From a virus (Duplodnaviria; Caudoviricetes): a DNA stretch of 57,729 nucleotides. Below the pieces are notes generated by a model. That model ran no database searches and was not told the DNA's origin. It saw nothing but the letters and a program-made list of their open reading frames with translations. The position numbers and the translations under genes were made by a program. Below, one piece after another: positions 3,176 through 29,454 of the stretch. The stretch is from IMG/VR virus record IMGVR_UViG_3300033407_000016, positions 1 to 57,729 of that record; one strand, given 5' to 3'. Numbering within the stretch: the first letter of the stretch is position 1; each line of letters opens with the position of its first letter.

Positions 3176-3606
3176 GTCTCCTCCAGATGGCCTTCGTCCC
3201 ATCCCCACTTCACGCCGCCCGTGACTGTGATGCCCCGCGCGGCTAGGAACCCCACGATATAAGCAGCCCGCTTCACCACTTCGAGTTTATCCCATGTCGG
3301 ACGGCCTCCCACGAACGCTGCGATATCGACCGCCTCACCATAGCCGGTGCCGTCACGGTCCTGATGGCTGGACAATAGGATGATCCCGTCACGAAACGTC
3401 ACGACCAAGTCTGCATCCACGATCTTACCGGCCTCGTCTCGACCCTGGAACCACAGATCCTGCTGCTCTTCTCGGGTACGAAGCCCGCTGATTACACTGA
3501 AGTCTAGCCAATCAGGCGCTGCCTCCAATGCATCAAGGATCGCTCCTCCCATGTACGGTCCGATCGTCTTGAGTACCGACCGTGTCTGCTTTCCTGCCTT
3601 CGCCAT
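3172..3606 (-). CDS. endolysin, M15 family L-Ala-D-Glu peptidase
   Basis: SGLRTxEEQ, SSH...AVD and WDxGHLE zinc-peptidase motifs. Confidence 0.85.
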   Translation of the reverse strand: MAKAGKQTRSVLKTIGPYMGGAILDALEAAPDWLDFSVISGLRTREEQQDLWFQGRDEAGKIVDADLVVTFRDGIILLSSHQDRDGTGYGEAVDIAAFVGGRPTWDKLEVVKRAAYIVGFLAARGITVTGGVKWGWDEGHLEET

Positions 3607-3607
3607 G

Positions 3608-4174
3608 CTACCACTCCCTTAGAATTCTGTCAATCAGCCCCAACTCCAGGGCTTGATCGGCCGTTAAGTACGTTTCGTCAATCAGCATCTTGCGCAGCTT
3701 CGCGCGCGGATACTTGGGCTGTTTCTCGCGGATTCGCCGCAGGTAGGTATCCTCCATCAACGCCATCAACCGCTCGTTCTCCTTCGCCACGGCGCGCGCA
3801 ACGTGGGCATTCTCCTCATACCCCCAGCTACCATAGTGCAGCATCATGCAGCAGTGCTGTGACATCACACGATCGTCCGCCGCTTGCGGAATCCATGAGC
3901 CCATCGACATCGCCATGCCATAGAGGGTGATGGTGACAAGAGCGTGGCTGCTGGCGATCGCATCGTAGATGCTGAGCCCGCAGTACTCGTCACCGCCCCC
4001 GCTGTTCATGATGATGTTGATGGGCTCACTGCTCACCAGCAGCACGTGCATTGCTTTGAGGAAGAACTCCGCCATCTCCTCCTCTACTTCACCGCCAACG
4101 AAGATGGTGCGCGTGGGCACGTACAGACTGTAGTCGAAGAATCGGTCAAGATCGTCACGGCGAAGCTGCCCCAT
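3608..4174 (-). CDS. clpP: ClpP-like serine protease (S14)
   Basis: INIIMNSGGG, GMAMSMGS (catalytic Ser), MLH, YLTADQALELGLID. Confidence 0.85.
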   Translation of the reverse strand: MGQLRRDDLDRFFDYSLYVPTRTIFVGGEVEEEMAEFFLKAMHVLLVSSEPINIIMNSGGGDEYCGLSIYDAIASSHALVTITLYGMAMSMGSWIPQAADDRVMSQHCCMMLHYGSWGYEENAHVARAVAKENERLMALMEDTYLRRIREKQPKYPRAKLRKMLIDETYLTADQALELGLIDRILREW

Positions 4175-10480: not shown

Positions 10481-10510
10481 ATTATACCATAGATCGGATC
10501 AGGATGTCAA
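10481..10510 (-). promoter_or_regulatory. sigma70-type promoter
   Basis: TTGACA-18 bp-TATAAT, with TG extended -10. Confidence 0.85.
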
Positions 10511-10806: not shown

Positions 10807-11038
10807 GCTCCACCTCCGAGATCAAGTCGTCCAGCTCCATGTACAACTCGGTCTCGTGCAGATCCATCTTCGCGCCTACGCCGTAGTACGCCGGCGAACC
10901 GTCGGGCTTCCGCACCCACGGCAGCACCTCGTGTGCGGCGTGGTAGTCGACCTTGTTCAGTCGATCGTGAAGTGTGACCACGCCCCATGCGATCAGGAGC
11001 GCGGCCCAAACAGCGACCATGACGTATGTGATGATCAT
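10799..11038 (-). CDS. small membrane protein
   Basis: N-terminal hydrophobic helix. Confidence 0.6.
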   Translation of the reverse strand: MIITYVMVAVWAALLIAWGVVTLHDRLNKVDYHAAHEVLPWVRKPDGSPAYYGVGAKMDLHETELYMELDDLISEVERG

Positions 11039-11901
11039 CCCAGCACTTCCTGCAACAGTGCGGCACTCGTCGGCCGCTTGAAGAATCCGAACGCCGCGTC
11101 ATCGCGACTGGCCTCAAACTTGGCGGTGAACCCCACCCTGGGCTGTATGCGACGGATGATCTGACGCAGACCTTCGTAGTTGTACAGCTCACTTATCGCG
11201 CTGCTCAGCCCCTCGGGCATCGTGCCGTACACCTTGTAGGCTCCGCCCCCGACCTCGACTCGCACGATCATCTTGCAGACATCAGTGTCATAATAGCCCG
11301 CCACCCACTTGATGCCGACCACGGTGCCTTCGATGCGGCAGCGGCCTTTGAGGACACTGGCAGGGATGGGCATCGGAGGAAACTCGACCCGCACCTGTGC
11401 CTCGTCATAGAGCCGTTTCAGGAAGGCGACCTGCTTCGTGGTCAGCGAGCCCCACCGCTCCAGCTTGGCCTTCATGTCCTTCACGATTGGATGGTCGAGC
11501 GATAGGTAGACTCGAACCTCGGGGAACATGAGCAGGAACATGATCATCTCTTGGAGACGTGCGTTCCGCTCCTGCTTGCGCTGAGCTGCACGGATCGCCA
11601 TGTCGCGCAGCCCCTGGTATTTGTGGTCGTCGGCCATGAGGCCATACTTCTCAGCGCACACATGGCCGATCGAGATACGCAGCCCCGTGGGCTCGTGCTC
11701 CCATGCCTCACCGTAGCGGAACTGGGTGCCACACACGCAGCACTTGCCGAGTGAAATGTAGTTCTCGACTGGCTTGGCCTCGATGAAGCGCGCACAAACA
11801 ACGACATTGAATGGAATGTCGCCGGGCTGGTTGCCGCCGAGATCGTAGCTGTCGAAGTAGCGGAATTCGGAAGGGACGATGGTGCTGGGGGAGAAGCGCA
11901 T
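11035..11901 (-). CDS. hypothetical protein with Zn-finger
   Basis: CCVCG...IGHVCA; AGGAGG SD; C-terminal GFFKRPT. Confidence 0.75.
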   Translation of the reverse strand: MRFSPSTIVPSEFRYFDSYDLGGNQPGDIPFNVVVCARFIEAKPVENYISLGKCCVCGTQFRYGEAWEHEPTGLRISIGHVCAEKYGLMADDHKYQGLRDMAIRAAQRKQERNARLQEMIMFLLMFPEVRVYLSLDHPIVKDMKAKLERWGSLTTKQVAFLKRLYDEAQVRVEFPPMPIPASVLKGRCRIEGTVVGIKWVAGYYDTDVCKMIVRVEVGGGAYKVYGTMPEGLSSAISELYNYEGLRQIIRRIQPRVGFTAKFEASRDDAAFGFFKRPTSAALLQEVLG

Positions 11902-18343: not shown

Positions 18344-19095
18344 CGGTATCTCCTTGCCGGCACGGCATCGCGTGCATAGGTGTCGAACAGTTCCAGGGCC
18401 TTCTGGGCATCAGCATGCTGCCAGCCGAAGGCTCCCCCAGCCTCCTCCATCAGACGACCCACAACGCTGGTCGCGGCATCACGACCATACATCGAATCAG
18501 GGTTGAGTTCAAGGCTCAGCAGCAGGCTGGTCCCCCTCACGGTGGATCGGCCAGCGTAGATATAGGGCTCTGGCTCGCTCAGCAACAGAGCGATCTCGAA
18601 CGCGAGCTGTTTGCCAATGCCCCTCACGGTAGCCAGCATGTTCGTGTTGCCTTCCAGGGATAGGCCGAGCTGATACTCGATCGCGCGAGCTTCCGCGCTC
18701 TCCATCACGGCACACACCTCACCCAGGTTCATTGGCAGGATGCCCATCGTGACGTTACAGTTGATCAGGCAGGGCGTCGAGCCCAGGGCGTCGAGCACCA
18801 AGTGGCTGTCCCATCCGTGCGCCTGTAGGATCGGCTTGATGAGATCGAGCGTCTCCGTCTTCGCGAAGAGCCAGCACGCGATCGTCGCGTAGATGCGCAG
18901 CGGTTCGGGCAGGTCGGCGATGTTCTGTTTCCACCAGCGGTACAACTTGCCGTCGGTGCGGCGGATGTTGGGGAACCAGTAGTCACGCAGGCGCGCATTG
19001 TCTGTGTGCGGTGCCGGTAGCCCGGCCTCGACTCGTTGTCGAATCTTCTCTCGTTCAATCACGAAGTTCCAGAAGTTGGTCAGCGCGGCAAGGAT
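18334..19095 (-). CDS. aGPT-Pplase1 / amino acid:DNA transferase-like protein (divergent)
   Basis: FWNFVIEREKIR..EAG.P.P.T.N..L..Y.F.NIRR.D N-terminus, GIG..LAFE HhH-like motif; possible ATC start at 19095 (GTG at 19062). Confidence 0.7.
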   Translation of the reverse strand: MLAALTNFWNFVIEREKIRQRVEAGLPAPHTDNARLRDYWFPNIRRTDGKLYRWWKQNIADLPEPLRIYATIACWLFAKTETLDLIKPILQAHGWDSHLVLDALGSTPCLINCNVTMGILPMNLGEVCAVMESAEARAIEYQLGLSLEGNTNMLATVRGIGKQLAFEIALLLSEPEPYIYAGRSTVRGTSLLLSLELNPDSMYGRDAATSVVGRLMEEAGGAFGWQHADAQKALELFDTYARDAVPARRYRWT

Positions 19096-19280
19096 GAGTC
19101 CAGCTCCTCGTCAACTTGGATGACGGAACGCACGAGCCCGAAGACTGGCATGTGGTCCTTGCAGTCTCGTGGCTCGAACTTCGCGTAGCTCTGGCGCTCG
19201 GTGAGAGGTGCGAGGTAGCGATAGCAGTCGCCCCGAGAAGGGCACTGTCTGCTCATGCACATCGTGATGTCAGGCATCAC
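19080..19280 (-). CDS. small Cys-rich phage protein
   Basis: MPDITMC...CP....CYRY...QSY motif. Confidence 0.75.
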   Translation of the reverse strand: MMPDITMCMSRQCPSRGDCYRYLAPLTERQSYAKFEPRDCKDHMPVFGLVRSVIQVDEELDSSLPR

Positions 19281-19525
19281 AGCCCCACAAACTTCGCGCG
19301 CAGCTCGGGGCTCCGTGCGTACGCCCGCTTCAGTCGACGATGGATCGGCCGCCAGCTCAGGGGGCGGTACATGACTTGATGAGTGAGCTTCTCCTTCACC
19401 ACAGGCTTGCCGTGACGATCCACGCTGTTGTATCGGACCTTCCGCTCGACGTAGCCGAGATCCAGGGGCTGTGCTGCTCTCGCCACTGCCAGCTTGCGCA
19501 GTACCTTCGACTTTCGACCGTTCAT
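19277..19525 (-). CDS. basic hypothetical protein
   Basis: MNGRKSKVLRK..., GAGGAG SD. Confidence 0.7.
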   Translation of the reverse strand: MNGRKSKVLRKLAVARAAQPLDLGYVERKVRYNSVDRHGKPVVKEKLTHQVMYRPLSWRPIHRRLKRAYARSPELRAKFVGL

Positions 19526-19539
19526 TACTCCTCCTCGAA

Positions 19540-19615
19540 TGGTGGCCCCGGTAGGGTTCGAACCTACGACCTTCTGGTTCAGAGCCAGACGCTCTTCCGG
19601 CTGAGCTACAGGGCT
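19540..19615 (-). tRNA. tRNA-Gln(CUG), Lys-like body
   Basis: Cloverleaf, anticodon loop CTCTGAA, encoded CCA, A1-C72 mismatch. Confidence 0.85.
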
Positions 19616-19617
19616 AT

Positions 19618-19695
19618 TGGATGCCTCGGTGGGACTCGAACCCACGACCTTGGGATTAGGAATCCCCTGCTCTCGTTCCACTGAGCTACGAGGCA
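19618..19695 (-). tRNA. tRNA-Arg(CCU)
   Basis: TGCCTCG/CGAGGCA acceptor, loop TTCCTAA, CCA. Confidence 0.9.
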
Positions 19696-19707
19696 GTATA
19701 ACACAAG

Positions 19708-19783
19708 TGGTAGAAGCGGAGGGACTCGAACCCTCGGTTGCCTTCTTGTAAGGAAGGTGCTGTTGCCGCTGAGCCACGCTTCT
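19708..19783 (-). tRNA. tRNA-Val(UAC)
   Basis: CCTTC-CTTACAA-GAAGG anticodon arm, CCA. Confidence 0.9.
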
Positions 19784-19788
19784 ATGAT

Positions 19789-19859
19789 TGGCAGGTGTGG
19801 AAGGAGTTGAACCCTCGCTTCTGGCTTTGGAGGCCGTCAGGCACCCTGTGCTCACACCT
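19789..19859 (-). tRNA. tRNA-Trp(CCA), reduced D-arm
   Basis: AGGTGTG/CACACCT acceptor, G73, loop CTCCAAA, 71 nt. Confidence 0.8.
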
Positions 19860-19864
19860 ACAAG

Positions 19865-19944
19865 TGGTGGCGGGGGTGGGAATCGAACCCACACTCGTGC
19901 TTGGGCATGAGCCAAGTGCAGCAGCCTGTACTGCGTGCCCCGCT
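19865..19944 (-). tRNA. tRNA-Met(CAU), initiator-like 1:72 mismatch
   Basis: CTTGG-CTCATGC-CCAAG arm; A1-C72. Confidence 0.75.
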
Positions 19945-19952
19945 ACGAATTC

Positions 19953-20027
19953 TGGAGCGCCCGCCGAGACTCGAACTCGGACCCGCTGGTTGGAAGCCAG
20001 ACATGCTGCCATTGACACCACGGGCGC
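19953..20027 (-). tRNA. tRNA-Gly(UCC)
   Basis: GCGCCCG acceptor, U73, loop CTTCCAA. Confidence 0.9.
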
Positions 20028-20034
20028 ATCCGAT

Positions 20035-20111
20035 TGGTTGGTCCGGCAGGTCTCGACCCTGCGACCTCCGGGGCTTCACTCCGGCGCTCTTACCAACTGA
20101 GCTACAGACCA
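20035..20111 (-). tRNA. tRNA-Phe(GAA)
   Basis: Cloverleaf, loop GTGAAGC, atypical T-loop GTCGAGA. Confidence 0.8.
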
Positions 20112-20118
20112 TCAAACT

Positions 20119-20194
20119 TGGTGGAGACGGTGGGAATCGAACCCACCGCAGTCTGTTTGCAAGACAAACTCGCCCCCTTGGTACATGCGTCCCC
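20119..20194 (-). tRNA. tRNA-Ala(UGC)
   Basis: G3-U70 pair, loop CTTGCAA. Confidence 0.9.
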
Positions 20195-20199
20195 ACGAT

Positions 20200-20274
20200 T
20201 GGCTGACTCGGTGGGACTCGAACCTACGCGCTGCGGCTTAACAGACCGCTGCTCTGCCACTGAGCTACGAGTCA
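20200..20274 (-). tRNA. tRNA-Asn(GUU)
   Basis: Loop CTGTTAA, G73. Confidence 0.9.
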
Positions 20275-20280
20275 TCGAAC

Positions 20281-20356
20281 TGGTTGCCCCGGTAGGCATC
20301 GAACCTACAACCTTCGGGTTAAGAGCCCGCTGCTCTGCCAATTGAGCTACGGAGCA
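20281..20356 (-). tRNA. tRNA-Lys(CUU)
   Basis: Loop CTCTTAA, A73. Confidence 0.9.
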
Positions 20357-20359
20357 ACG

Positions 20360-20392
20360 AAAAGCGGCGCGAGCCGTGAAGCCCGCGCCGCT
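20360..20392 (-). terminator. intrinsic terminator between micropeptide gene and tRNA operon
   Basis: AGCGGCGCGGGC-TTCACG-GCTCGCGCCGCT stem followed by TTT. Confidence 0.75.
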
Positions 20393-20416
20393 GTACATGT
20401 CAGCCGATTGGACTTC

Positions 20417-20521
20417 CTACTTGCGGATCCACCAGAAGATGTCCGCCTTGGCGACCGCTGGCATCACAGTCAGGGCCACGATAATGGCCGTGCACATGAA
20501 ATACCGGAAGTGTTGCCTCAT
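20417..20521 (-). CDS. 34-aa micropeptide MRQHFRYFMCTAIIVALTVMPAVAKADIFWWIRK
   Basis: Translated by hand; AAGGGAG SD, own promoter and terminator; signal-peptide architecture. Confidence 0.75.
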   Translation of the reverse strand: MRQHFRYFMCTAIIVALTVMPAVAKADIFWWIRK

Positions 20522-20563
20522 CTCGGTCTCCCTTGCTGCGAGAATACCCTAGATACAGCTTAT

Positions 20564-20592
20564 ACGATACCACAGGCATCAGGAGCTGTCAA
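20564..20592 (-). promoter_or_regulatory. sigma70-type promoter
   Basis: TTGACA-17 bp-TATCGT with TG extension. Confidence 0.8.
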
Positions 20593-20813
20593 GCTCCGTC
20601 CCTTCCCTGATCTCGGACCAGGCCGATCGCCGCCTCATTCAGAGCACGGCTCATGCCAAGCAGGTCGATCGCGTTGCAGTTCATGTAGGCTGTGATCAAT
20701 TGGCCGTCAGGGTTGATCGAGATCATCATCGCAGAGCTGGATTCACGCAGGATCGTCGCCATGCGAGCGCGCTGCTCCTCGATGTTCACGAGCCGGTCCA
20801 TACTGTCGGACAT
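20589..20813 (-). CDS. hypothetical protein
   Basis: 74-aa ORF, AGGAG SD. Confidence 0.6.
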   Translation of the reverse strand: MSDSMDRLVNIEEQRARMATILRESSSAMMISINPDGQLITAYMNCNAIDLLGMSRALNEAAIGLVRDQGRDGA

Positions 20814-20882
20814 CCGTGCTCCTAGTACATCAGGTCTGGCGCGTTGTCCTGAGCAGCACTGGGATAGAGATGATCGCGTCGA

Positions 20883-22601
20883 TCACTCGCATTGCATTCT
20901 CCCTGATTCGTGGTCGAGCGCGCACGAGGCATCGACCTCGACGAGCATCGCCATACGCTCACCGTCAGCATTGAAGACGGTGCAGCCCTTGGCGCCCCGT
21001 TCCCACGCCTCGAAGTAGATCTGCTTGAAGTCCTCCCAGGGCATGTCGCCCGTGACGTTGCAGGTCTTGGACACTGCACTATCCACCCATCTCTGGGCTG
21101 TGGTCAGCACAGCGACATGCTCCTGGGCTGTGACCTCACTGGACTTCTTGCCTAGCACACCCAGGAACTCGACCCCGTAGTCCTTCACACGCACCGTGCG
21201 CTCGACATTGTCGGGTCCGATGTATGTGCGGTCAGCTTCGTACGCGAACACCGGCTCGATGCCGCTGCTCACATTGTCCGCAGCCACACTGATCGTACCA
21301 GTCGGCGCGATCGAGAGCAAGTGGCTATTGCGGATTCCGTGTTGCTTGATGCCCTCGATGATGCCCTCGTCCTCGAACAGCTCCTGATGGCTCTGGATGA
21401 AGCCACTCTGTAGGTACTGCTTGGCGTCGAACGCAGGGAACGGCCCCTTCTCCTTGGCCAATTCGACCGACGCCCGATACGATTCAATCATCAGGGCCTC
21501 CAGGATCTCTGCCTCCATGTGGAGGAACTCTTCGCTACCGTACTCGTAGCCTAGTGCTTCGAGTGCGTTCGCGAGGCCCGTGATGCCAAGACCCATGCGC
21601 CTTTTGCTCTTCGCCTCTTTCTCTTGTTCGTAGAGCGGGTAAATGGCGCGGTCGACGACGTTGTCCATCGCACGGACAACGTGTGGAATGTCTGCCGTAA
21701 ACTGGTCCCAATCGAAGCTTCGACCAACAGATCCAACTAGGTACTTCACCAGATTGAGCGAGCCCAGCAGGCACGCCCCGTCGGGGGGCAGTGGCTGCTC
21801 CCCGCACGGATTGCATGCGGCGATCGTCTCGCAGTACCAGAGGTTGTTCATGGTGTTGATACGGTCGATGAACAGCACACCTGGCTCAGCCCAGTCCCAC
21901 GCGCTGCGCATGATCATCTCCCAGAGCGCCCGAGCGTCGATCGTCTTGTAGGTCTGCCCCTCGAACACAAGGTCGAACTGGCTGCCATGCTTGACCGCGT
22001 CCATGAACTTGTCCGTCACAGCGACCGAGATGTTGAAGCCTGTCAGTGAGCCCTTCTCACATACCTGGCACCAGTCCCGCTTCGTGTGGATGAACTCCTC
22101 GATGTCGGGATGATCCACACGCATCACGCCCATCTGGGCGCCGCGTCGATGGCCCGCGCTCGATGTCGCCTTGCCGACCGAATCGAATATCGGCATGAAG
22201 CTCACGGGTCCGCCGCTCGTGCTCTGGAGCTTGCGGATCAACGACCCCTTGGGCCTGAGTGTGCTGAAGTCGTTCCCGAGCCCGCCACCCATGCGCATTG
22301 TGATAGCGCCGCGCGCCGCGCATGCCATGATGCTGCGGTCACCGTCCGTGAACGTGTCCTCGATCTTGGCGCCCACAAAGCAGTTGTAGGGCGTGACGGC
22401 GCGCGTGCTGCCCATCGCAGCCTGAATCCGCCCGCCAGGCATGAAGCGCATGCTACCGAGAATATCTCGCAGGACGTGGTAGTGCCCGTCGTCATCCTTC
22501 AGCGCCGCAGCGACGCGGTTGATCGCTTCGCGGTAGCTCTCGTTGCTCGATCGGTACTTCGTCTCGTGGATATGCTGCGCGAACGGGGTCACTGGTCCCA
22601 T
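20883..22601 (-). CDS. nrdJ: ribonucleotide reductase class II (B12-dependent), compact
   Basis: PGGR, NCF, RRGAQM, HPDI, EPG, NPCGEQ, CLLGS, RRMGLG, APTGT; no beta-subunit gene seen. Confidence 0.92.
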   Translation of the reverse strand: MGPVTPFAQHIHETKYRSSNESYREAINRVAAALKDDDGHYHVLRDILGSMRFMPGGRIQAAMGSTRAVTPYNCFVGAKIEDTFTDGDRSIMACAARGAITMRMGGGLGNDFSTLRPKGSLIRKLQSTSGGPVSFMPIFDSVGKATSSAGHRRGAQMGVMRVDHPDIEEFIHTKRDWCQVCEKGSLTGFNISVAVTDKFMDAVKHGSQFDLVFEGQTYKTIDARALWEMIMRSAWDWAEPGVLFIDRINTMNNLWYCETIAACNPCGEQPLPPDGACLLGSLNLVKYLVGSVGRSFDWDQFTADIPHVVRAMDNVVDRAIYPLYEQEKEAKSKRRMGLGITGLANALEALGYEYGSEEFLHMEAEILEALMIESYRASVELAKEKGPFPAFDAKQYLQSGFIQSHQELFEDEGIIEGIKQHGIRNSHLLSIAPTGTISVAADNVSSGIEPVFAYEADRTYIGPDNVERTVRVKDYGVEFLGVLGKKSSEVTAQEHVAVLTTAQRWVDSAVSKTCNVTGDMPWEDFKQIYFEAWERGAKGCTVFNADGERMAMLVEVDASCALDHESGRMQCE

Positions 22602-22625: not shown

Positions 22626-22654
22626 AGAATAGCACGATCAGATCGCAATGACAA
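22626..22654 (-). promoter_or_regulatory. sigma70-type promoter upstream of nrdJ
   Basis: TTGTCA-17 bp-TATTCT with TG extension. Confidence 0.65.
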
Positions 22655-23897: not shown

Positions 23898-24428
23898 CTA
23901 CCAATGGATGTGGAAGTCTCGCTTCTTCACCTTTGCCATGCGTCCGTCTGGATGGTGCCAGACAATGCCCTCATAGAGCTTGTCCTGCGTCAACCATTCC
24001 AAGATCTCGGCATAGGTTCGTGGATCGGCGTCGAGCTTGCGTAGCCCATGCTCGATCAGCATGATACGATCGAACTGGTGTCGGTTCCCGTTGATCTTTG
24101 GCCCACACAGCTCGTACGTCTGGCCCTCCCTCATGCGTCCGGCGCGGCGCAGCCCGGTGCGGTGCCACTTGTCGCCCGGTCCGTCCGTGACCGGCATCCA
24201 GCCGGGATGGCGGAGCGTGTTGGGATCAGGCATGGGCTGTGCAGGCAGCCAGTCTGTGGGATAGTCAGTGTCATGGGCTTGGATCGTATGCCGCTTGTAC
24301 AAGCGGCCTTCCAGATACAGGCAGGCCGTCCCGTCCCACTTCACTGTGGGCACGCCCTCGCCTTCCAACACCCACTCACAGCCGGGTGTGACCGTCGTCA
24401 TCTGGAACAGTGTGGGGATCTTTCGCAT
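23898..24428 (-). CDS. RNA ligase 1-like protein (RLIG1/C12orf29/DUF5565 type)
   Basis: MRKIPTLF, KWDGT (motif I KxDG), TYELCGPKINGN, EGIVW, AKVK. Confidence 0.75.
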   Translation of the reverse strand: MRKIPTLFQMTTVTPGCEWVLEGEGVPTVKWDGTACLYLEGRLYKRHTIQAHDTDYPTDWLPAQPMPDPNTLRHPGWMPVTDGPGDKWHRTGLRRAGRMREGQTYELCGPKINGNRHQFDRIMLIEHGLRKLDADPRTYAEILEWLTQDKLYEGIVWHHPDGRMAKVKKRDFHIHW

Positions 24429-24512
24429 GGTGCTCCTATGAAGTTGGTGTGGGCCTCGCACCCACTCGGGCAGTCTTGATGACGCAGGTAGCCTAGTCTG
24501 CGACCCTTCTCG

Positions 24513-27450: not shown

Positions 27451-27491
27451 TGGTAGTCCTGGTGGGCTCGAACCCACACGCACCGCGTATG
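27451..27491 (-). pseudogene. tRNA 3'-half fragment ending in CCA
   Basis: CATAC..GTGGGTTCGAGCCCAC-CAGGACT-A-CCA; no adjacent 5' acceptor strand. Confidence 0.65.
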
Positions 27492-27538
27492 TGGAAGAAG
27501 GCGGAGGAATCGAACCCCAAGCGTGAGCGGCGCCTTCC
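27492..27538 (-). ncRNA. 47-nt tRNA minihelix-like RNA (acceptor + T-arm only)
   Basis: GGAAGGC/GCCTTCT acceptor, GGGG-TTCGATT-CCTC T-arm, T-CCA end, ~12-nt linker. Confidence 0.65.
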
Positions 27539-27544
27539 TCAAGT

Positions 27545-27619
27545 TGGTCTGAGTGGCTGGATTCGAACCAGCGCCAGCCTGCTTCCAGGGCAGGTATGCG
27601 GCCACAACACCTCACTCAG
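27545..27619 (-). tRNA. tRNA-Pro(UGG), C33 variant
   Basis: CTGAGTG/CACTCAG, A73, loop CCTGGAA. Confidence 0.8.
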
Positions 27620-27690
27620 TGGTACTGGCGGAGGGTTACGATCCCTCGTCCTCGGATCCACAATCCGTCGCTCTGCCATTGACTGACTAG
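27620..27690 (-). pseudogene. tRNA-His(GUG)-like, lacking a matching 5' acceptor strand
   Basis: CGGA-TTGTGGA-TCCG anticodon arm, T-arm and CCA present; 5' end does not pair. Confidence 0.6.
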
Positions 27691-27745
27691 GCGGAAGGTG
27701 GGGCGTTCTTGACTGAGTACATTGGTGTGTCCTTCGTCGAGAGGC

Positions 27746-27815
27746 TGGAGCCGATACGAGGAGTCGAACCCCGCTAGCAGCCGTACAAAGGGTGCTTTCT
27801 CCCAGAGATACCGGC
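27746..27815 (-). tRNA. tRNA-Thr(UGU)-like, reduced D-arm
   Basis: GCCGGTA/TATCGGC acceptor, TCTC-TGG-GAGA D hairpin, loop TTTGTAC, CCA. Confidence 0.7.
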
Positions 27816-27830
27816 TCAAGGGTCTGAACC

Positions 27831-27859
27831 AGAATAGCAAATCCCGATTGGGATGTCAA
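27831..27859 (-). promoter_or_regulatory. sigma70-type promoter for the tRNA-fragment cluster and helicase operon
   Basis: TTGACA-17 bp-TATTCT with TG extension. Confidence 0.85.
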
Positions 27860-29454
27860 GCGGCTTTCCAGGCCCCTTCGTACATCGTAATGATCGCCCT
27901 TTTCCCGGTCGGGTATGTCACGATGTGGCTGTGCGTCCACGAAGATGGCCCCACATTGTAGCCGTGATCGAGACTTGCTGTCACTCCTGCAACATACAGG
28001 CCGTCCACGATCTCGGCCGCGTGCGTGTGGCCCGTGTTGGCCCTGCGCGCGATCCGGCTCAGAGCCCTGGTGCCCCCCCTTGTCCCATTCGGCCCGAGAT
28101 GACCGTGCATTCCGCACTCAATCCCGCCACCCTGATTGTGCAGGAGGATGAACTGTTCATCCGGCCGGAGGAAGCGGACGTGCTTACCGACGCCCAGGTA
28201 GCGGAGCGCCCACTCGATCACGTGGAAGTCCTCCCGTCTCTCGATCGCCTTGTACTTGCGAAGCTGAGCTTCAAGGAAGAAGATTGCGTTCGTCGGATCC
28301 TTCTTGTAGTCATGCTCTCGCAGCCAGCGGGTCAAGGCGCTGTCGTGGTTACTGTCGACCACGACCATATCACAGTAGTCACGGTCTGCCATCGCCATGA
28401 AGCTGACCACGTCCTCCAGCTCCTTTCGTACATTGTCTGCACCATGGACGTAGCGAGCGAACATGGTGTGTGGGTTGCCAGTGTCGTGATGGTTGCGGGC
28501 ACGGAAGTCGACCATGTCATGCATGAATTGGTATCGTGGACGCAGCGCATCCATCATACCGTTCTTGCCCCACGCAAGCGCTGTGATCCCCTCATTCATC
28601 TGGGCGACATGGATGTCGCCCCAGTTGATCGCTTCGACACGGTGACCACCAGTCACCTCACCGTTCGCGACGCGCAGATCAAGATCATGGATCACTCCCT
28701 CACTATCGGCGTTGAGCTGCCGGCAGAACCAGCGCCCCCTGCTGTCCACCTCAACCAGCAAGGCACCATAGACGTGATGGAATTCAGCCTTCAGTCCGGC
28801 CTTCTTCTGGATGTAGTTGCGCAGCGTCACGGTGCCGGTGGTGAAGTTGAACTTTACGCCCTCACTCTTGCCAGAGGGCAGGGACTGCATCGCAACCTTG
28901 ACGTGAGGGAAGATGCCCGAGCGGCGTCCCGTGTAGGTGTCGAGTCCACTCAGCGGACGTACGGCCGTGGGCAGGATGTTCATTTCCCCGCACCACATCA
29001 GCCCAGGAGCCAGCTCAATACGCTCATCGTTGAAGTAGGGGGCGAGTTTACCGTTGTACCACAGGTTCGCGTCCGTGACCGGACCTGTGTCAGGCTTCTC
29101 GGGCTGTGTGAAGGCGTGGCGGTTGTAGGTGTAGCGTGAGACGAGCACCTGGGCACCCCAATACTCGGCGAGCGCCATGAGCGAGCGCCATGTGGGCTCG
29201 TGTAGGTCGGTGTTGTTCTGGGCGCTAGTGCAGATGTAGCGGCGCACCCCGCTGCGTGGGATTGTGAACCGCTTGTGCCTCAGACCGTGAGGGTCACCAC
29301 CAGAAAGGGGCTTGATGTGGCCAGACCTCTTCAGGTCACGCCGTACGGTCGTGCGTGGAATGCCAGTCTCACGAGAGACCGCCTTGGCGGACCCGAGACG
29401 GGCGTACGCTTCTGCTACCTGTTCTCTTCTACTTGCCGCCGTGCGTGATCGCAT
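27856..29454 (-). CDS. T5 A1-like metallophosphoesterase/nuclease with N-terminal HTH
   Basis: TSAQNNT, NILPTA..PLSG, NYIQKKAG.KAE.H, GDIH, RNHH, SNHD, HGH.G.NG, NTGHTH, GYNVG.SSWT match T5 A1 as recalled. Confidence 0.85.
   Translation of the reverse strand: MRSRTAASRREQVAEAYARLGSAKAVSRETGIPRTTVRRDLKRSGHIKPLSGGDPHGLRHKRFTIPRSGVRRYICTSAQNNTDLHEPTWRSLMALAEYWGAQVLVSRYTYNRHAFTQPEKPDTGPVTDANLWYNGKLAPYFNDERIELAPGLMWCGEMNILPTAVRPLSGLDTYTGRRSGIFPHVKVAMQSLPSGKSEGVKFNFTTGTVTLRNYIQKKAGLKAEFHHVYGALLVEVDSRGRWFCRQLNADSEGVIHDLDLRVANGEVTGGHRVEAINWGDIHVAQMNEGITALAWGKNGMMDALRPRYQFMHDMVDFRARNHHDTGNPHTMFARYVHGADNVRKELEDVVSFMAMADRDYCDMVVVDSNHDSALTRWLREHDYKKDPTNAIFFLEAQLRKYKAIERREDFHVIEWALRYLGVGKHVRFLRPDEQFILLHNQGGGIECGMHGHLGPNGTRGGTRALSRIARRANTGHTHAAEIVDGLYVAGVTASLDHGYNVGPSSWTHSHIVTYPTGKRAIITMYEGAWKAA

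Follow-up and report, generated by a model that had tools for sequence, protein, structure and literature searches.

The window analysed here is an entire virus record of 57,729 bases (IMG/VR IMGVR_UViG_3300033407_000016, Caudoviricetes), and our subject is a short cassette on its minus strand, between positions 20592 and 20363, in which a promoter, a 34-codon open reading frame (ORF) and a terminator-like hairpin precede an array of tRNA genes. An original prediction had taken this layout for an attenuator in which tandem Trp codons report on host tRNA depletion. We find that the ORF belongs to a family of mini-proteins, present in phages and bacteria, that share a C-terminal motif containing both Trp residues. 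Our best reading, offered tentatively, is that the cassette holds a working gene for a mini-protein, transcribed from a promoter of its own and closed by a leaky terminator, through which transcription would continue into the tRNA and replication genes with nothing being sensed.

A promoter, a mini-gene and a hairpin precede the tRNA array

Read along the minus strand, the elements follow one another in the order promoter, Shine-Dalgarno sequence, 34-codon ORF, 24-nucleotide (nt) spacer, hairpin and tRNA-Lys. The promoter (20564..20592) is of sigma-70 type with an extended -10 element, TTGACA-17-TGgTATCGT, and agrees with the consensus at 10 of 12 positions; its -35 hexamer TTGACA occupies 20592-20587 and, after 17-nt spacing, the -10 hexamer TATCGT, preceded by TG, occupies 20569-20564. 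The corresponding pattern TTGACA-N14-16-TGnTAnnnT has four exact matches in the window (3605-3633, 10481-10510, 20564-20592 and 27831-27859), all on the coding strand, and none in 100 shuffles. These four promoters mark off units within the early half of the genome, and no short ORF followed by a hairpin lies behind any of those at 27859, 10510 and 3633. At 3633 the -10 element overlaps the ATG of the next ORF, for which reason the mRNA made there may be leaderless.

A Shine-Dalgarno sequence, AAGGGAG (20528..20534, minus strand), stands 6 nt 5' of the ATG of the ORF (20417..20521, minus strand), which was taken from the ORF listing, matches the family pattern described below and ends in TAG. 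The translation of 34 amino acids (aa), MRQHFRYFMCTAIIVALTVMPAVAKADIFWWIRK, comprises a basic N-terminus, a 16-residue hydrophobic core, AVA/KA and the family motif DIFWWIRK. Its final codons, TTC-TGG-TGG-ATC-CGC-AAG-TAG, read on the minus strand just as originally reported, with the TGG TGG pair at 20434-20429. A short ORF that is predicted to be translated therefore lies between a promoter and what looks like an intrinsic terminator, as it would in an attenuator.

The G+C-rich hairpin (20363..20392, minus strand; 5' arm 20392-20380, loop 20379-20376, 3' arm 20375-20363) begins 24 nt after the TAG, a distance already noted. Ten of its 13 base pairs (bp) are G-C and two are G-U, the loop is UCAC, the tail is UUUCGUU and the folding energy is -25.9 kcal/mol; the surrounding 93-nt region has a z of -3.62, and none of 200 shuffles folded equally well. 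The gap of 3 nt between terminator and tRNA-Lys that had been given holds if the UUU run is counted with the terminator, while the stem itself stops 6 nt short of the tRNA, which starts at 20356, so that the interrupted U-tract UUUCGU (20357..20362, minus strand) forms the 6-nt 5' leader of tRNA-Lys. Because it holds G-U pairs the hairpin is specific to the minus-strand RNA, and a DNA-level palindrome was rejected, the same pairs being C-A mismatches on the opposite strand. No other terminator-like site in the window is as strong. The only one besides it with at least 10 pairs, a 10-pair hairpin at 356-331 (minus strand) with the tail CUUUUCUGUC, lies close to the downstream end of the early region.

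We compared the cassette with 80 loci anchored on relatives of the class II ribonucleotide reductase (RNR) gene that lies upstream of it (20883-22601, minus strand), with flanks that reach only 4 kilobases (kb). One of them, L001 (95% RNR identity), has the promoter, ORF, hairpin and tRNA array together; the other 79 have at most one tRNA, and none of them shows such an ORF inside the 4 kb. The promoter of L001 is identical and its Shine-Dalgarno sequence is kept, its ORF differs by two non-synonymous (H4R, C10F) and three synonymous nucleotide changes and by TAG>TAA, its spacer has four changes in 24 nt that leave the GAAGUCC just past the stop intact, and its single hairpin change turns a G-C into a G-U pair. 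The arrays differ as well: L001:6517-7639 includes Tyr-GTA, Arg-ACG and Ile-GAT, and Phe-GAA is not called there. When the 74-aa ORF next to the cassette and a 35-nt stretch of tRNA-Lys were used as queries, only the contig of L001 matched, and blastn against named phages gave tRNA matches only. Among contigs from four DNA runs, one spans the cassette and departs from it at two places 5' of the ATG; the rest are tRNA-Lys look-alikes, and the set carries no information on covariation.

The ORF is a member of a mini-protein family

We defined the DIFWW family by the C-terminal motif D-I-[FW]-W-W-[LIM]-R-[KRH] directly before the stop, a hydrophobic stretch upstream and a length of about 13-40 aa, and searched for it with degenerate DNA patterns for the motif. 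The window ORF falls within this definition, ending in KADIFWWIRK-stop after its hydrophobic core. A degenerate DIFWWIRK pattern found the viral contig L084, which carries four tandem ORFs of 19-23 codons and no tRNA, each ORF ending in ADI(F/W)WW(I/L)R(K/R)-stop. On that contig the tandem genes (L084:1556-1967, minus strand) are followed by an ORF with a lipoprotein signal and lie near a 280-aa protein that shares PHROGs 4750, 4265 and 18425 with the window ORF at 11038-11901.

The wider pattern D-I-[FWCL]-W-W-[LIMF]-R-x-stop was found in 16 viral, 111 metagenome and 52 genome stretches. By our own estimate it carries about 36 bits, from which about 15 chance matches are expected in the genome collection of 596 billion bases, in agreement with the roughly 17 genome matches that lack any ORF context; the remaining matches are ORFs of 13-40 codons in which a hydrophobic stretch leads into the invariant C-terminus. 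Among 106 distinct family ORFs, which were themselves found with the pattern, the WW pair is invariant (106/106), and all degenerate codon positions vary (GAC/GAT, ATC/ATT/ATA, TTC/TTT, six Leu and six Arg codons). Because the synonymous sites of the motif vary freely, selection acts on the peptide and not on the RNA. The stop codon that follows the motif in these ORFs is TAG in 61, TGA in 26 and TAA in 19, uncorrected for kinship, and a TAG share of 61/106 is unusually high for mostly G+C-rich DNA.

Other members of the family lack the tRNA context of the window. A tRNA lies directly downstream at none of the 14 other viral family loci, and the scan of viral loci (metagenome and genome loci were not scanned) found tRNAs in that position only in the window and in L001. 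A terminator occurs within 130 nt in 22 other family members. Some of the long forms, that of the window included, look like signal peptides from their sequence, with an AxA site just before the motif.

Neither Pfam nor PHROGs holds a family for the 34-aa peptide or for its 74-aa neighbour, the ESM Atlas includes the peptide sequence yet yielded no usable neighbour, and a full-text literature search for DIFWW, FWWLRK and related strings returned nothing relevant, the one hit being an unrelated nematode preprint. With no Pfam or PHROG family and no motif match in print, the DIFWW family and the bacterial synteny to which we now turn appear to be undescribed.

Bacterial members follow a PDZ-PP2C phosphatase gene

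The titles of the 52 genome records include 12 Eisenbacteria, six Krumholzibacteriota and three Fibrobacteraceae. In metagenome-assembled genomes of these groups the mini-gene has about 22 codons and lies on the same strand, 100-550 nt downstream of a gene for a protein of 815-870 aa (1,148 aa in one case) with PDZ, often GAF, and SpoIIE/PP2C domains, as Pfam showed for all eight proteins tested. An example among loci L211-L262 is L232:2228-4882, where a DIFWWLR[KR] gene follows the gene for a multi-pass membrane PDZ-(GAF)-PP2C phosphatase. A hidden Markov model built from seven PDZ-PP2C proteins and applied within 700 nt upstream found such a neighbour at 21 of the 38 ORF-bearing genome matches, 19 of 74 metagenome matches and none of 18 viral matches, several of the loci scored as lacking one being short of upstream sequence; the window ORF likewise has no PDZ-PP2C gene as neighbour. 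At the bacterial loci examined, classic terminators follow the mini-gene. Located behind the phosphatase gene and before a terminator, these bacterial mini-genes are not leaders.

PDZ is a domain type that reads C-termini. A hydropathy scan places it after a first hydrophobic segment and ahead of six to nine more that form a block (one protein lacks the N-terminal segment), and since it is flanked by hydrophobic segments the PDZ domain is probably extracytoplasmic. It is possible that the invariant C-terminus is a PDZ ligand and that mini-gene and phosphatase form a peptide-sensor pair, an idea that meets a topological difficulty, because the C-terminal Arg/Lys of the short forms is expected inside the cell.

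The tandem Trp codons are dictated by the family motif

The array behind the cassette (19540..20356, minus strand) runs Lys-CTT, Asn-GTT, Ala-TGC, Phe-GAA, Gly-TCC, Met-CAT, a Trp-CCA-like element, Val-TAC, Arg-CCT and Gln-CTG. With default settings ARAGORN calls nine tRNAs in the array and a distant tRNA-Pro. The Trp-CCA-like element (19789-19859, minus strand) is sub-threshold, scoring 26.4 bits in Rfam against a gathering score of 29; it has two non-standard anticodon-stem pairs and is called by ARAGORN only at -ps90. Nine of the ten tRNAs originally counted are thus confident and the tenth falls below the gathering score, and of the tRNAs said to be cognate to the leader codons TGG, TTC, AAG and AGG, Phe-GAA, Lys-CTT and Arg-CCT are called, the tRNA-Trp remaining sub-threshold.

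Because the family motif dictates the two Trp codons, how far they stand from the stop and which Phe and Lys codons flank them, none of these features needs a sensor. In the form given, the proposal that the Trp-Trp pair senses depletion of host tRNAs is not supported: the WW pair is invariant in the family, the tRNA-Trp is sub-threshold, and leader codons match phage tRNAs at 16 of 34 positions, compared with 32.2% in 37 long ORFs that total 13,614 codons (p = 0.051). The control codons of an attenuator are chosen for the regulated pathway and are otherwise unconstrained, which is not so here. What we do find is a promoter and a terminator of its own around one accessory gene that is patchily present among relatives (1/80), a promoter-gene-terminator cassette of the kind called a 'moron'.

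An alternative RNA pairing is compatible with attenuation

A different and possible, though not probable, explanation is translation-coupled attenuation, in which a ribosome at the stop codon would cover the sequence GAAGUCC and let the terminator form, whereas one that lags or stalls in the stretch V A K A D I F W W, roughly codons 23-31, would leave GAAGUCC free to pair with the 5' arm of the terminator and so allow RNA polymerase to continue into the tRNA and replication genes. This is a more general form of the original proposal. GAAGUCC, which we call region 2, comprises nt 1-7 past the stop (20410..20416, minus strand) and has two possible partners, GGAC.UCUUC (the D-I-F codons) on its upstream side and GGGCUUC of the terminator arm on its downstream side. 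When the 3' arm of the hairpin is masked, GAAGUCC pairs with GGGCUUC (20384-20378, the end of the 5' arm and the loop) and GCUG pairs with CAGC. Only the latter, weak antiterminator had been seen by eye; the structure becomes stronger once the GAAGUCC:GGGCUUC helix is added. With the ribosome footprint taken as about 12 nt past the A site (compare PMC4824070), a ribosome with the stop codon in the A site would cover GAAGUCC, and one held at the TGG codons would mask its upstream partner and leave GAAGUCC itself free.

The energies of this pairing bear comparison with those of a real attenuator. The window antiterminator folds with -16.2 to -16.5 kcal/mol, sequesters 9 of 13 arm nt and must cross a direct-path barrier of 12.5 kcal/mol to refold into the terminator, the L001 antiterminator gives -16.6 to -16.8 kcal/mol, 10 of 12 arm nt and 12.6 kcal/mol, and E. 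coli trpL, run through the same script as a positive control, gives -15.6 kcal/mol, 5 of 8 arm nt and 5.8 kcal/mol. By these measures the window pairing holds its own against trpL. The earlier remark that the layout resembles TrpL attenuation was borne out to this extent, that the alternative helix reaches the trpL numbers and the geometry is attenuator-competent. At equilibrium the window terminator keeps a pair probability above 0.83 under every ribosome mask. We rejected this dominance as evidence against attenuation, the argument being void because the trpL terminator also dominates (0.94-0.96).

Measured against chance, the pairing gives a divided picture. It beats shuffles of the spacer with p = 0.006-0.015, which favours attenuation, but reaches only p = 0.096-0.125 against natural 24-mers of the same phage. 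In the 22 other family members that carry a terminator, the barriers lie anywhere from 3.5 to 12.6 kcal/mol; the window's rank of 2 among the 23 lineages with comparable terminators counts against attenuation. The upstream 1:2 hairpin is at chance level, 50-70% of controls folding as well, and is weak in L001 (-5.8 kcal/mol). A joint shuffle test of the 1:2 and 2:3 pairings was poorly posed, the real sequence showing no overlap by it, and only the 2:3 figures are used here. We regard the evidence that the alternative pairing goes beyond chance as suggestive, with a likelihood ratio of roughly ten-fold, and not decisive.

Other observations also fall on both sides. The Trp codons stand three codons ahead of the stop, like those of trpL, and the hairpin has a strong promoter on one side of it and, on the other, about 10 kb of genes for which no further promoter-like site is seen. 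The stop-to-stem distance of 24 nt is one at which, according to PMC4824070, a terminating ribosome still modulates the terminator. On the other hand, the peptide family explains the WW codons, the tRNA-Trp is sub-threshold, the codon match is marginal, the single relative L001 is too few for covariation, and essential replication genes would hinge on ribosome stalling. If attenuation is true, the leader more likely senses, in a general way, that ribosomes lag over codons 23-31 than it senses Trp.

Under attenuation the mini-protein could be bifunctional, for which S. meliloti's trp leader peptide, peTrpL, is a reported precedent (PMC7298713). A mini-gene that is both a phage copy of a host signalling peptide and a trpL-like translation-capacity switch, opening the way into the tRNA and replication genes whenever ribosomes lag, seems to us unlikely.

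The hairpin would have to let transcription through

Besides the tRNAs, the genes for DNA polymerase, helicase and primase also lie behind the hairpin, and the coding strand from 20564 to 11965 (about 8.6 kb) holds no promoter-like site that we could find. Because the replication genes lie downstream of it without such a site over this distance, the hairpin must be leaky, switchable or overridden. Further promoter-like sites occur upstream, at 22654, 25998 and 27859, with no strong terminator between them and the hairpin; the cassette promoter, once described as the sole evident promoter of the tRNA operon, is the nearest of several.

A terminator at this boundary is ordinary in the phage group, since 17 of the 79 other RNR-anchored relatives have a terminator-like hairpin 0-500 nt past the RNR gene, 11 of the 79 within 35 nt. 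From these hairpins it follows that RNR often ends a transcription unit in the group. Hairpins at most 35 nt past the RNR stop occur in L011, L012, L014-L016, L050, L051, L054-L056, L069 and others.

In our preferred reading, the ORF would encode a DIFWW mini-protein of 34 aa that is exported or sits in the membrane, and the strong host-type promoter and putative intrinsic terminator would make it a cassette at the transcription-unit boundary after RNR. The hairpin would halt part of the transcripts. In those that read through, RNase P would cut at the +1 position of tRNA-Lys, 6 nt downstream, leaving a mini-gene mRNA with a protective 3' hairpin, a step suggested by what is generally known of RNase P and of 3' exonucleases. 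Expression of the tRNAs and replication genes would come from constitutive read-through from the cassette promoter and the upstream promoters, no codon or tRNA would be sensed, and the Trp-Trp pair would be present as a requirement of the peptide family. By analogy with a lambda terminator, for which PMC4824070 gives measured termination of about 0.1-0.8 at 17-18 bp from the stop and about 0.9 beyond 30 bp, a ribosome terminating 24 nt upstream may dampen termination somewhat.

Several findings weigh against this preferred reading. The trpL-like alternative hairpin is present and is retained in L001, where the outer helix has not changed and the inner one differs yet pairs, and the window antiterminator, second among the 23 lineages, is tied at the top with L210, the only other family member whose barrier equals it. 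The hairpin is better kept in L001 (29/30 nt) than the spacer (20/24). The cassette promoter is among only four of its class, which would be wasteful if most transcripts ended after 34 codons, and a second promoter of the class, at 27859, leads ungated straight into tRNA-like elements and tRNA-Pro.

The hairpin could instead be a temporal gate, opened by an antitermination factor of phage or host, so that the tRNAs and replication genes would be delayed-early. Host RNA polymerase that sets out from the early promoters would halt at the hairpin until such a factor rendered it resistant to terminators. The lambda terminators tR1 and tL1 are overcome by N antitermination in this way. The order of promoter, small first gene, terminator and replication genes would suit such a gate, as would the absence of any other strong terminator-like site from the interior of the genome and the 8.6 kb beyond it that lack a promoter-like site. 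Against it, no antiterminator protein or nut/put-like RNA turned up, no systematic search having been made, and an Rfam scan of 19000-21000 yielded nothing but tRNAs. We consider a gate of this kind very unlikely.

Just as improbable, in our judgement, is a hairpin that does not terminate and serves as an RNA stability or processing element, marking the 3' end of the mini-gene mRNA after RNase P frees tRNA-Lys. That the stem stops 6 nt short of the tRNA 5' end, that the U-tract is interrupted (UUUCGUU) and that downstream genes need transcription across the hairpin all accord with it. Yet a stem followed by five U in 8 nt fits the usual terminator pattern, and efficient terminators with interrupted U-tracts exist, rrnB T1 being one. 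Typical RNase III substrates are longer than 13 bp; the stem is below that length, and an RNase III site was rejected as a candidate.

Genome setting

The window is about 90% complete by a tool estimate, has a G+C content of about 60% and carries essentially all of its long ORFs on the minus strand. The cassette lies within its DNA-metabolism module. Upstream of it are genes for a DNA-transfer protein, helicases, an RNA-ligase-like protein, a Dda-like helicase and the RNR, followed by the 74-aa ORF already mentioned (20589..20813, minus strand; from the ORF listing), whose TGA stop falls within the -35 hexamer of the cassette promoter. Downstream of the array are genes for a thymidylate-synthase-like protein, DNA polymerase, helicase and primase. 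Because an ORF with its own Shine-Dalgarno sequence begins at 19528, 12 nt past the array, the tRNA genes are embedded in a long polycistronic unit and form no separate operon.

Two tRNAs of the array may be atypical phage tRNAs. The 80-nt tRNA-Met(CAT) (19865-19944, minus strand) is unmatched by the Rfam tRNA model and scores 24.8 bits on that for tRNA-Sec, and tRNA-Ala (20119-20192, minus strand) was reported under the tmRNA model with 36.5 bits, below threshold. A second tRNA cluster (27480-27860, minus strand) lies right behind the promoter at 27859 and contains two sub-threshold tRNA-like elements, one at 27749-27815 (22.6 bits) and one at 27631-27684 (18 bits; to the eye its GTG loop is His-like), together with tRNA-Pro (48 bits) and, near 27493-27540, a T-arm/acceptor-like stretch. 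A 187-aa ORF (23901-24461, minus strand) matches the PHROG 'RNA ligase' family phrog_14301 (E = 3.8e-50), and this RNA-ligase-like gene co-occurs with tRNA arrays in the window phage. In T4, RNA ligase repairs tRNA cut by an anticodon nuclease.

Significance and comparison with known systems

Whatever the gate does, the cassette has led to an unannotated family of peptides of 13-40 aa with an invariant C-terminus, common to phages and little-known bacterial phyla, and the PDZ-PP2C synteny offers a ligand-sensor hypothesis and a possible clue to the phage host. It also counsels caution: protein-family membership should be checked before tandem codons for a rare amino acid in a short ORF are read as a sensor. 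If the gate does sense translation, it would be a leader-type attenuator over tRNA genes and a phage replication module, and our literature search, in listings and abstracts, found no published leader-type attenuator of tRNA genes. Such a gate would bear on phage answers to host defences that target tRNA, a subject of PMC10264068.

The regulatory parts of the cassette are of known kinds. Like E. coli trpL, it has a short ORF close to the promoter in which tandem TGG stands three codons ahead of the stop, then a strong terminator, and an alternative helix whose 5' strand lies just past the stop and which overlaps the terminator 5' arm. Unlike trpL, its ORF is 34 codons long, hydrophobic and of a conserved family found mostly in non-leader positions, its hairpin fronts tRNAs and replication genes and not Trp biosynthesis genes, and its 1:2 hairpin is not above chance.

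Moron cassettes are known from lambdoid phages as units of promoter, gene and terminator. The cassette resembles them in its own sigma-70-type promoter, its one small accessory gene with a terminator directly after, and its presence at one of 80 RNR-anchored loci, but differs in that it is surrounded by an essential replication module read from the same strand, so that its terminator would affect essential genes downstream, and in that its promoter is part of the phage's own set of four. The pR-cro-tR1 and pL-N-tL1 units of lambda, similarly, place a terminator after an early promoter and a small first gene and before the replication genes. In the window, however, no antitermination factor or nut-like site was found, none having been systematically searched for, and its hairpin looks intrinsic, whereas tR1 is Rho-dependent.

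Finally, E. coli secG-leuU is a mixed mRNA-tRNA transcript processed by RNase P, and the window shares with it a protein message directly upstream of a tRNA on one transcript, an arrangement in which RNase P defines the 3' region of the mRNA. The window departs from secG-leuU in placing a 13-bp hairpin and a U-run between the two and ten tRNA genes after them.

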